A program made the translations under genes and the position numbers. 64,000 nucleotides of DNA from Flectonema sp. DT1601 (Eukaryota). Location of the stretch: assembly GCA_964019425.1 (NCBI GenBank), contig OZ025799.1, positions 992,001-1,056,000 of the forward strand, in the 5' to 3' direction. Under the pieces are notes generated by a model. That model was not told the DNA's origin and searched no databases. It was given only the letters and a program-made list of their open reading frames with translations. Below, one piece after another: positions 7,132-7,199 of the stretch (position 1 is the stretch's first letter; every line of letters begins with the position of its first letter).

Positions 7132-7199
7132 CTTACTTCTACACCATACTGATGATGAGAGAATAGAGGTAAGAGGTATATGGATTACTCTCGAAACCT
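7132..7199 (+). ncRNA. Candidate hammerhead ribozyme, non-standard kissing-hairpin topology
   Basis: CUGAUGA 7149-55 and GAAA 7193-96. Stem I CCAUA/UAUGG, stem II GAGAG/CUCUC, stem III AGGU/ACCU, GUA cleavage triplet, plus an extra 10-bp helix. Confidence 0.65.

Follow-up and report, generated by a model that had tools for sequence, protein, structure and literature searches.

A type CSG hammerhead motif in a multi-copy insertion of a euglenozoan genome and its probable affiliation with Penelope-like elements

The insertion, its copies and its surroundings

The window analysed here, the whole stretch of 64,000 nucleotides, derives from a euglenozoan, likely a diplonemid: for the SF3B1 encoded in the window, the nearest named relative is that of Diplonema papillatum at 68%, and three unnamed matches are closer. 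Positions 5819-7317 are occupied by a multi-copy, 5'-truncated insertion flanked by a target duplication of 14-15 nt on a C-run (Table 1), and the corresponding empty site is provided by a short contig of run X2 (record 6, depth 2.6) in which both flanks are joined directly. The ORF of the insertion corresponds to the 3' half of a protein of 753 aa, whose cluster at 90% contains 10 members. The window copy is 5'-truncated and 99% identical over 384 aa. In one relative (P0015), read-through from the ORF extends into sequence that closely matches the 3' UTR on the 5' side of the ribozyme. A search with the ORF among representatives returned 10 matches, all of them with the appearance of family members, and no longer form of the protein was found, a result of little weight. 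The protein belongs to no Pfam family, shows no similarity to reverse transcriptases (RTs), endonucleases, GIY-YIG domains or the Naiad protein, and has Atlas matches that are all below 0.8. The window yielded no Penelope-like RT, and no pseudo-LTR duplication is seen at the 5' end of this copy. The combination of an N-terminal GIY-YIG domain, CxC and a C-terminal RT that characterizes an autonomous Naiad/Chlamys element is absent from the window ORF and its relatives. The hammerhead motif described below lies 180 nt 3' of the ORF stop, and its predicted cut falls 140 nt before the 3' end of the insertion.

Four copies of the family are present in the window; the tail is found in all four and the C-run end in three. 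In the decayed copy near 52913 the parts follow a different order and pieces of the ribozyme region are present twice. The stems are broken or missing in the copies other than the one at 5819-7317, so that there is no covariation within the family. The short copy at 43483 keeps at least four bases 5' of the predicted cut and hence did not start at the cut. Run X1 provides one contig that is identical over 7082-7200 and then splits into two tails, as well as a single contig (record 5, depth 2.5) in which unrelated sequence is joined exactly at 7179; alternatively, this contig may have lost 3 nt within a longer stem III. Among sequencing runs, two were listed with a small share of the sequence and no RNA run was among those listed, a result that is silent on expression. 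A family-specific pattern retrieved two matches in metagenome contigs, both apparently protein-coding and without the G block.

A fragment of 28S rRNA follows at about 7395-7790 (+), corresponding to the domain IV region (Rfam E 1.1e-26) with internal deletions; it was discarded as a part of the element, as it starts about 65 nt past the right duplication. A one-base insertion in this fragment creates a second CUGAUGA at 7400, which was considered as another hammerhead and rejected because it is without stems. The whole region is enclosed by two pairs of inverted repeats (5349-5370/8280-8301 and 5627-5665/8245-8283), which may mark a larger host element or the paired ends of SINEs. Repeats resembling tRNAs, likely tRNA-derived SINEs, occur at 8098-8210, 40328-40406, 5661-5692 and 24749-24780 and are not called by ARAGORN. 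Elsewhere in the window, two relics resemble, by eye, a restriction-like endonuclease (RLE; 42405-42932, +) and a zinc-finger ORF (41042-41653, +) of a non-LTR element, with no confident Pfam match. At 37502-38801 (+), a UCH-like peptidase domain precedes a series of RNase H1 N-terminal (Cauli_VI) domains, probably a mobile-element relic. An uninterrupted frame of 2235 aa (43679-50386, +) contains ankyrin-like, NTPase and WD40-like parts by eye, and a tandem array of some 98 copies of a 32-nt unit extends over about 12659-15400.

Table 1. Positions of the insertion, of the parts of the hammerhead motif and of the other family copies in the window
Feature	Position	Strand	Remarks
Left target-site duplication	5804-5818	+	C-run, 15 nt; empty site in run X2 record 6
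ORF, 3' part	5819-6969	+	Multi-copy; one CxxC..HxxxC motif; longest relative 753 aa
Two hairpins 5' of the motif	7084-7131	+	9 bp, z -5.39; 6 bp, z -2.27; second also in the decayed copy near 52949
P0, 5' strand	7132-7141	+	Helix bringing stems I and II together, also in the published CSG structure; pairs with 7164-7173, 10 bp, one G-U
Block C	7144-7161	+	Stem I 5' strand 7144-7148, CUGAUGA 7149-7155, extra U 7156, stem II 5' strand 7157-7161
P0, 3' strand	7164-7173	+	Abuts stem III, 0-nt linker
Block S	7174-7183	+	Stem III 5' strand, GUA triplet ending at A7178 (cut predicted after A7178, by analogy), stem I 3' strand
4-nt linker and block G	7184-7199	+	Stem II 3' strand, GAAA, stem III 3' strand
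Stem I	7144-7148/7179-7183	+	5 bp
Stem II	7157-7161/7188-7192	+	5 bp
Stem III	7174-7177/7196-7199	+	4 bp; first pair A15.1-U16.1
GAAA	7193-7196	+	
Tail to the 3' end of the element	7200-7317	+	Common to three other window copies
Right target-site duplication	7318-7331	+	14 nt, one C fewer
Tail-only family copy	24229-24318	-	Ends at C-run
Short family copy	43483-43645	+	Blocks S and G, then tail; change in the stem II strand; near-identical duplication of about 15 nt on either side
Decayed family copy	52913-53100	+	S-G-like block, hairpin, C block, G remnant, tail; stems broken

Architecture of the motif and chance expectation

The hammerhead has been divided by Eckert et al. 2023 (PMC10085705) into the blocks C, G and S, of which non-circular orders exist. 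Positions 7132-7199 of the plus strand contain a full hammerhead core with four helices in the order C-S-G; the preliminary description had placed the core and all four helices here, and every one of these elements is present. The CUGANGA, GAAA and NUH parts of the core are flanked by stems I-III, all core bases are intact, and all 24 pairs of the helices are standard, one G-U among them. The loop of P0 displays the 5' strand of stem I, CUGAUGA, an extra U and the 5' strand of stem II, and the loop of stem III comprises A7178, the 3' strand of stem I, a 4-nt linker, the 3' strand of stem II and GAA. The stems thus cross and the 10-bp P0 encloses block C, which is the arrangement that defines type CSG. 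Instead of standing directly before G10.1, A9 is separated from it by one U (7156). This U is, to judge from the alignments of Eckert et al., a tolerated variant, as the same insertion occurs in most SGC and SGC-variant sequences, the tested ones included (PMC10085705).

The initial claim that the motif is not a hammerhead of type I, II or III was borne out by a descriptor covering all six block orders, which recovered CSG alone in the window and none of the orders CGS, GSC and SCG that correspond to these types. A canonical type I or III reading making use of the flanking sequence was ruled out in the same way. With stems of at least 4/4/4 bp, the six-order descriptor gives exactly one match in the real window, the motif at 7132-7199. 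The chance expectation was obtained from 5460 shuffled windows, in which dinucleotides were kept in 1-kb blocks and both strands were scanned. A core in CSG order with stems of at least 5/5/4 bp occurred once in these shuffles, any of the six block orders at the same stem lengths occurred 25 times, and a CSG core with an enclosing helix of at least 8 bp did not occur. Chance is excluded as the origin of the motif.

At the folding level, P0 and stem III form with pairing probabilities of 0.91-0.98 in a 271-nt context (ViennaRNA, whose model does not include the crossing stems). Weak pairs that compete with the kissing strands are predicted inside the loops, with unpaired probabilities as low as 0.06, and the stability of the nested fold taken by itself is unremarkable (z -0.19 and z -1.06). 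Of the two hairpins preceding the motif, the 9-bp one (7084-7108, z -5.39) has GUC and AAAC at its loop edges and could be the relic of an older S-G hairpin, the copy near 52913 having one at that position. The expectation that standard descriptors would overlook the motif proved right: Rfam gives no match over the window at the gathering threshold and no hammerhead family over 5300-8400 at E up to 5, and only 'half cores' were seen by Craig et al. in the related tails discussed below. It is very likely that the motif is a real CSG fold.

Relatives among published hammerheads and Naiad elements

The preliminary description was right in placing the topology outside types I-III, but this topology had already been described and tested by Eckert et al. 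2023 (PMC10085705). Judged from its block order, it is the known type CSG, and it is the genomic context that is new. The type-CSG alignment of these authors consists of two similar unique DNA sequences from soil metagenomes (5 copies), without an assigned host or element. Both CSG-1 and CSG-2 cleave in vitro during transcription at the predicted site, with rates of 0.004 and 0.026 per min, respectively, and the evidence for the type was graded weaker than that for SGC because of a lack of covariation (PMC10085705). The window motif resembles CSG-1 and CSG-2 in its C-S-G order, the helix around block C, stems I and II of 5-6 bp, the short linker between the 3' strands of these stems and a length of about 66-68 nt. 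It differs from them in residing in a eukaryotic nuclear repeat, in carrying the extra U that the published sequences do not have, and in its GUA triplet, 4-bp stem III and absence of a linker between P0 and stem III; outside the core the sequences are unrelated.

The SGC ribozymes, which come mostly from metatranscriptomes (PMC10085705), provide a second point of comparison. The SGC variants, SGC-3 for instance, share with the window motif the extra U after the core, an AA before P0, a GAUUA between stems I and II and the two-hairpin design, whereas the order of the hairpins is reversed, CSG being circularly permuted relative to SGC. All three sequence features agree with the SGC-variant alignment of Eckert et al., the tested SGC-3 included. 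Given the shared AA linker and GAUUA, the motif looks like an SGC variant in which the two hairpins have changed places. The pseudoknot-containing (pistol-like) hammerhead of Zhan et al. 2024 (PMC11300833) is similar in its hammerhead chemistry and in forming one core helix as a stem-loop pseudoknot, although its pseudoknot replaces helix II only, as described there, while stems I, II and III all cross in the window motif. LTR and non-LTR retrozymes are likewise non-autonomous retroelements carrying a hammerhead, and the animal type has been tied to Penelope-like elements (bioRxiv 10.64898/2026.07.22.740005). As described in that work, retrozymes contain either type III ribozymes in LTRs with a 4-bp duplication or type I ribozymes in tandem units, and encode no protein; the window element, with its ORF, has neither LTRs with type III nor tandem units with type I.

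A further comparison is with the Naiad and Chlamys groups of Penelope-like elements. According to Craig et al. 2021 (PMC8557442), Naiads are without canonical hammerheads, and some of them carry core halves 35-50 nt apart (a 'half core'), for which that account proposes no structure. In the window motif the gap between the core halves is 37 nt. Their supplement was searched for eight core variants, and among the 35 matches listed, 16 are located in the file that gathers the 54 consensus sequences of Naiads. Complete CSG folds were recognized by eye in six of these 16, several of which are flagged there as 'half core' only. In these folds, P0 has 9-13 bp, stem I 5-6, stem II 4-5 and stem III 6-12 (by eye), and the stem sequences are mostly different. 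The carriers, assigned by neighbouring headers and table order, include Naiad-1, -2, -3_Nbra and Naiad_Smim, with another fold in two related entries and one without an assigned entry. The remaining 10 of the 16 matches in the supplement gave no CSG parse by eye, and line breaks or core variants other than the eight may conceal more folds than the six. Other Naiad tails in that supplement combine, by eye, stems I-III and a P0-like helix with a chain opened between CUGAUGA and stem II. Like Naiad/Chlamys elements, the window element is 5'-truncated and carries a ribozyme fold close to its 3' end, within the 3' UTR; non-autonomous members exist in that group as well, and C-runs are targeted as in Chlamys (PMC8557442). 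It differs from them in having no GIY-YIG, CxC or RT and no recognizable pseudo-LTR. The main text of Craig et al. makes no mention of the word 'Euglenozoa' (PMC8557442), and no open-access paper was found that links non-circular hammerheads to Penelope-like elements.

Pattern scans of prokaryote genome contigs yielded at least 120 loci (from 22 of 64 parts), and a first scan of viral contigs yielded 6. Real pairing was found in just one of these 126 loci, L127, the other 119 of the 120 prokaryote loci being chance matches. The L127/L250 fold is of type CSG; its stems measure 6, 5 and 10 bp and its P0 12 bp. The 4.6-kb contig on which it lies is filed in a bacterial bin, likely a binning error of a eukaryotic contig. 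It encodes (768-3809, -) a complete 1013-aa Naiad-type Penelope-like ORF with an N-terminal GIY-YIG and a C-terminal RT, as expected of an autonomous Naiad/Chlamys element, and the ribozyme core begins 553 nt after the ORF stop. Of the 14 pairs of stems I-III compared between L250 and the window motif, nine are changed on both sides, five are the same and none is broken, the last figure being true by construction, as the stems were traced as runs of pairs. Covariation, which had been called for among genomic copies, is strong across elements (in part by eye) and lacking within the window family, whose other copies are broken. The four scans of viral contigs (6, at least 120 from 37 of 64 parts, 9 and 47 loci) gave no compact CSG with a P0 among the loci listed, nor were relatives of the L250 ORF found in viral contigs. 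Two viral candidates, L268 and L283, reach 4/6/4 but were rejected for their lack of P0 and their 33-nt gap. Four further viral loci (L251, L254, L255 and L258) are hammerhead-like matches in type I order with long loops.

Proposed action of the ribozyme and alternative explanations

The explanation that we favour, and consider reasonably probable, is that of a cis-cleaving CSG hammerhead belonging to a non-autonomous Penelope-like element of the Naiad/Chlamys type. During transcription, P0 and stem III would form first as two adjacent hairpins, whose loops would then kiss to give stems I and II. Kissing would rebuild the ordinary active site, with G12 as the general base and the 2'-OH of G8 as the general acid, following the hammerhead chemistry outlined by Zhan et al. 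(PMC11300833). The RNA would be cut after A7178, a site placed by analogy. The upstream product, which bears the ORF, would end in a cyclic phosphate, and the downstream product would begin with a 5'-OH and comprise about 140 nt plus read-through, including the 3' end of the element. Hammerheads of Penelope-like elements have been proposed to process tandem precursors (PMC8557442). In line with proposals for other elements of this group, cleavage would here shorten transcripts that are tandem or run past the element, and would fix where the next unit, or a short parasitic copy, begins at its 5' end. An insertion that includes the ORF, such as 5819-7317, would have to stem from uncut RNA, with RT supplied in trans. 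For one Poseidon element, it has been demonstrated that cleavage is unnecessary for insertion and that uncut RNA is the main substrate (PMC11167929). The use of uncut RNA as insertion substrate fits both the insertion at 5819-7317, which spans the cut site, and the copy at 43483, which starts just upstream of it. By analogy with the tested ribozymes, cleavage in cis is likely; the 4-bp stem III and the competing loop pairs argue against it.

Mobilization of the element in a Penelope-like manner is favoured with fair confidence. It is suggested by the C-run ends and the presence of the same fold behind Naiad ORFs, and is countered by the lack of an RT in the element or window, the lack of a pseudo-LTR, the LINE-like target duplication and the RLE-type relic nearby. 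The hint at Penelope-like elements in the preliminary description has been strengthened indirectly, through the Naiad-type ORF of L250 and the Naiad consensus tails that carry CSG folds.

The foremost alternative keeps the CSG hammerhead as real and places it on a non-autonomous element mobilized by a LINE (CRE/R2-like, RLE-type), where a SINE-like RNA of about 140 nt would have its 5' end defined by the cut. A clear target duplication of 14-15 nt is more typical of LINE-type insertion, and the 5' truncation, the fixed 3' end, the RLE-like relic of the window and the contig of run X1 that joins unrelated sequence exactly at 7179 point in the same direction. However, that contig may instead have lost 3 nt within a longer stem III, the 43483 copy starts 5' of the cut, and every other CSG fold found here whose context is readable either follows a Naiad ORF or forms part of a Naiad consensus. 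Mobilization by a LINE is unlikely. An obligate head-to-tail dimer, in which block C of one RNA would pair with blocks S and G of another, is less probable still. It would account for the zero-nucleotide junction between P0 and stem III, which according to Eckert et al. is hard to fit to the crystal structure (PMC10085705), and small Penelope-type hammerheads have been reported to cleave as dimers. Against it, CSG-1 and CSG-2 cleaved during transcription (PMC10085705), and natural SGC and CSG examples, among them L250 and the Naiads, repeatedly show junctions of 0-2 nt. Of the original proposal of a 'pseudoknotted or dimeric hammerhead', the pseudoknot is upheld, whereas the dimer finds no specific support, although the main text of Eckert et al. 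reports no dimer test. Equally improbable is a fossil, a family ribozyme once active whose present copy is too slow or whose RNA is never made. The 5' truncation inside another repeat, the decayed sister copies, the short A-U-rich stems and the competing pairs speak for it. Against it stand an intact core and pairing, ORF copies 99% identical over 384 aa and a run X1 contig in which 7082-7200 is fully preserved and divergence of the tails sets in only after 7200.

With the Penelope-like hammerhead as the preferred explanation, the window locus, L250 and the six Naiad tails would bridge two gaps, namely a type CSG left without host, role or covariation in the work of Eckert et al. and Naiads left without canonical hammerheads in that of Craig et al. 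Together they show covariation in each of the four helices and give CSG a biological setting, the Naiad folds being parsed by eye. The role of Penelope-type ribozymes and the folding of a triple-crossing hammerhead become testable in this way. In a wider reading, which we regard as evenly poised between right and wrong, non-circularly permuted hammerheads would be the standard ribozyme of Penelope-like elements with an N-terminal endonuclease, from animals to euglenozoan protists. Type CSG would then represent a large family of eukaryotic retroelement ribozymes, would account for the ribozymes 'missing' from Naiads, and would be linked to the RNA-only SGC type by an exchange of two hairpins.
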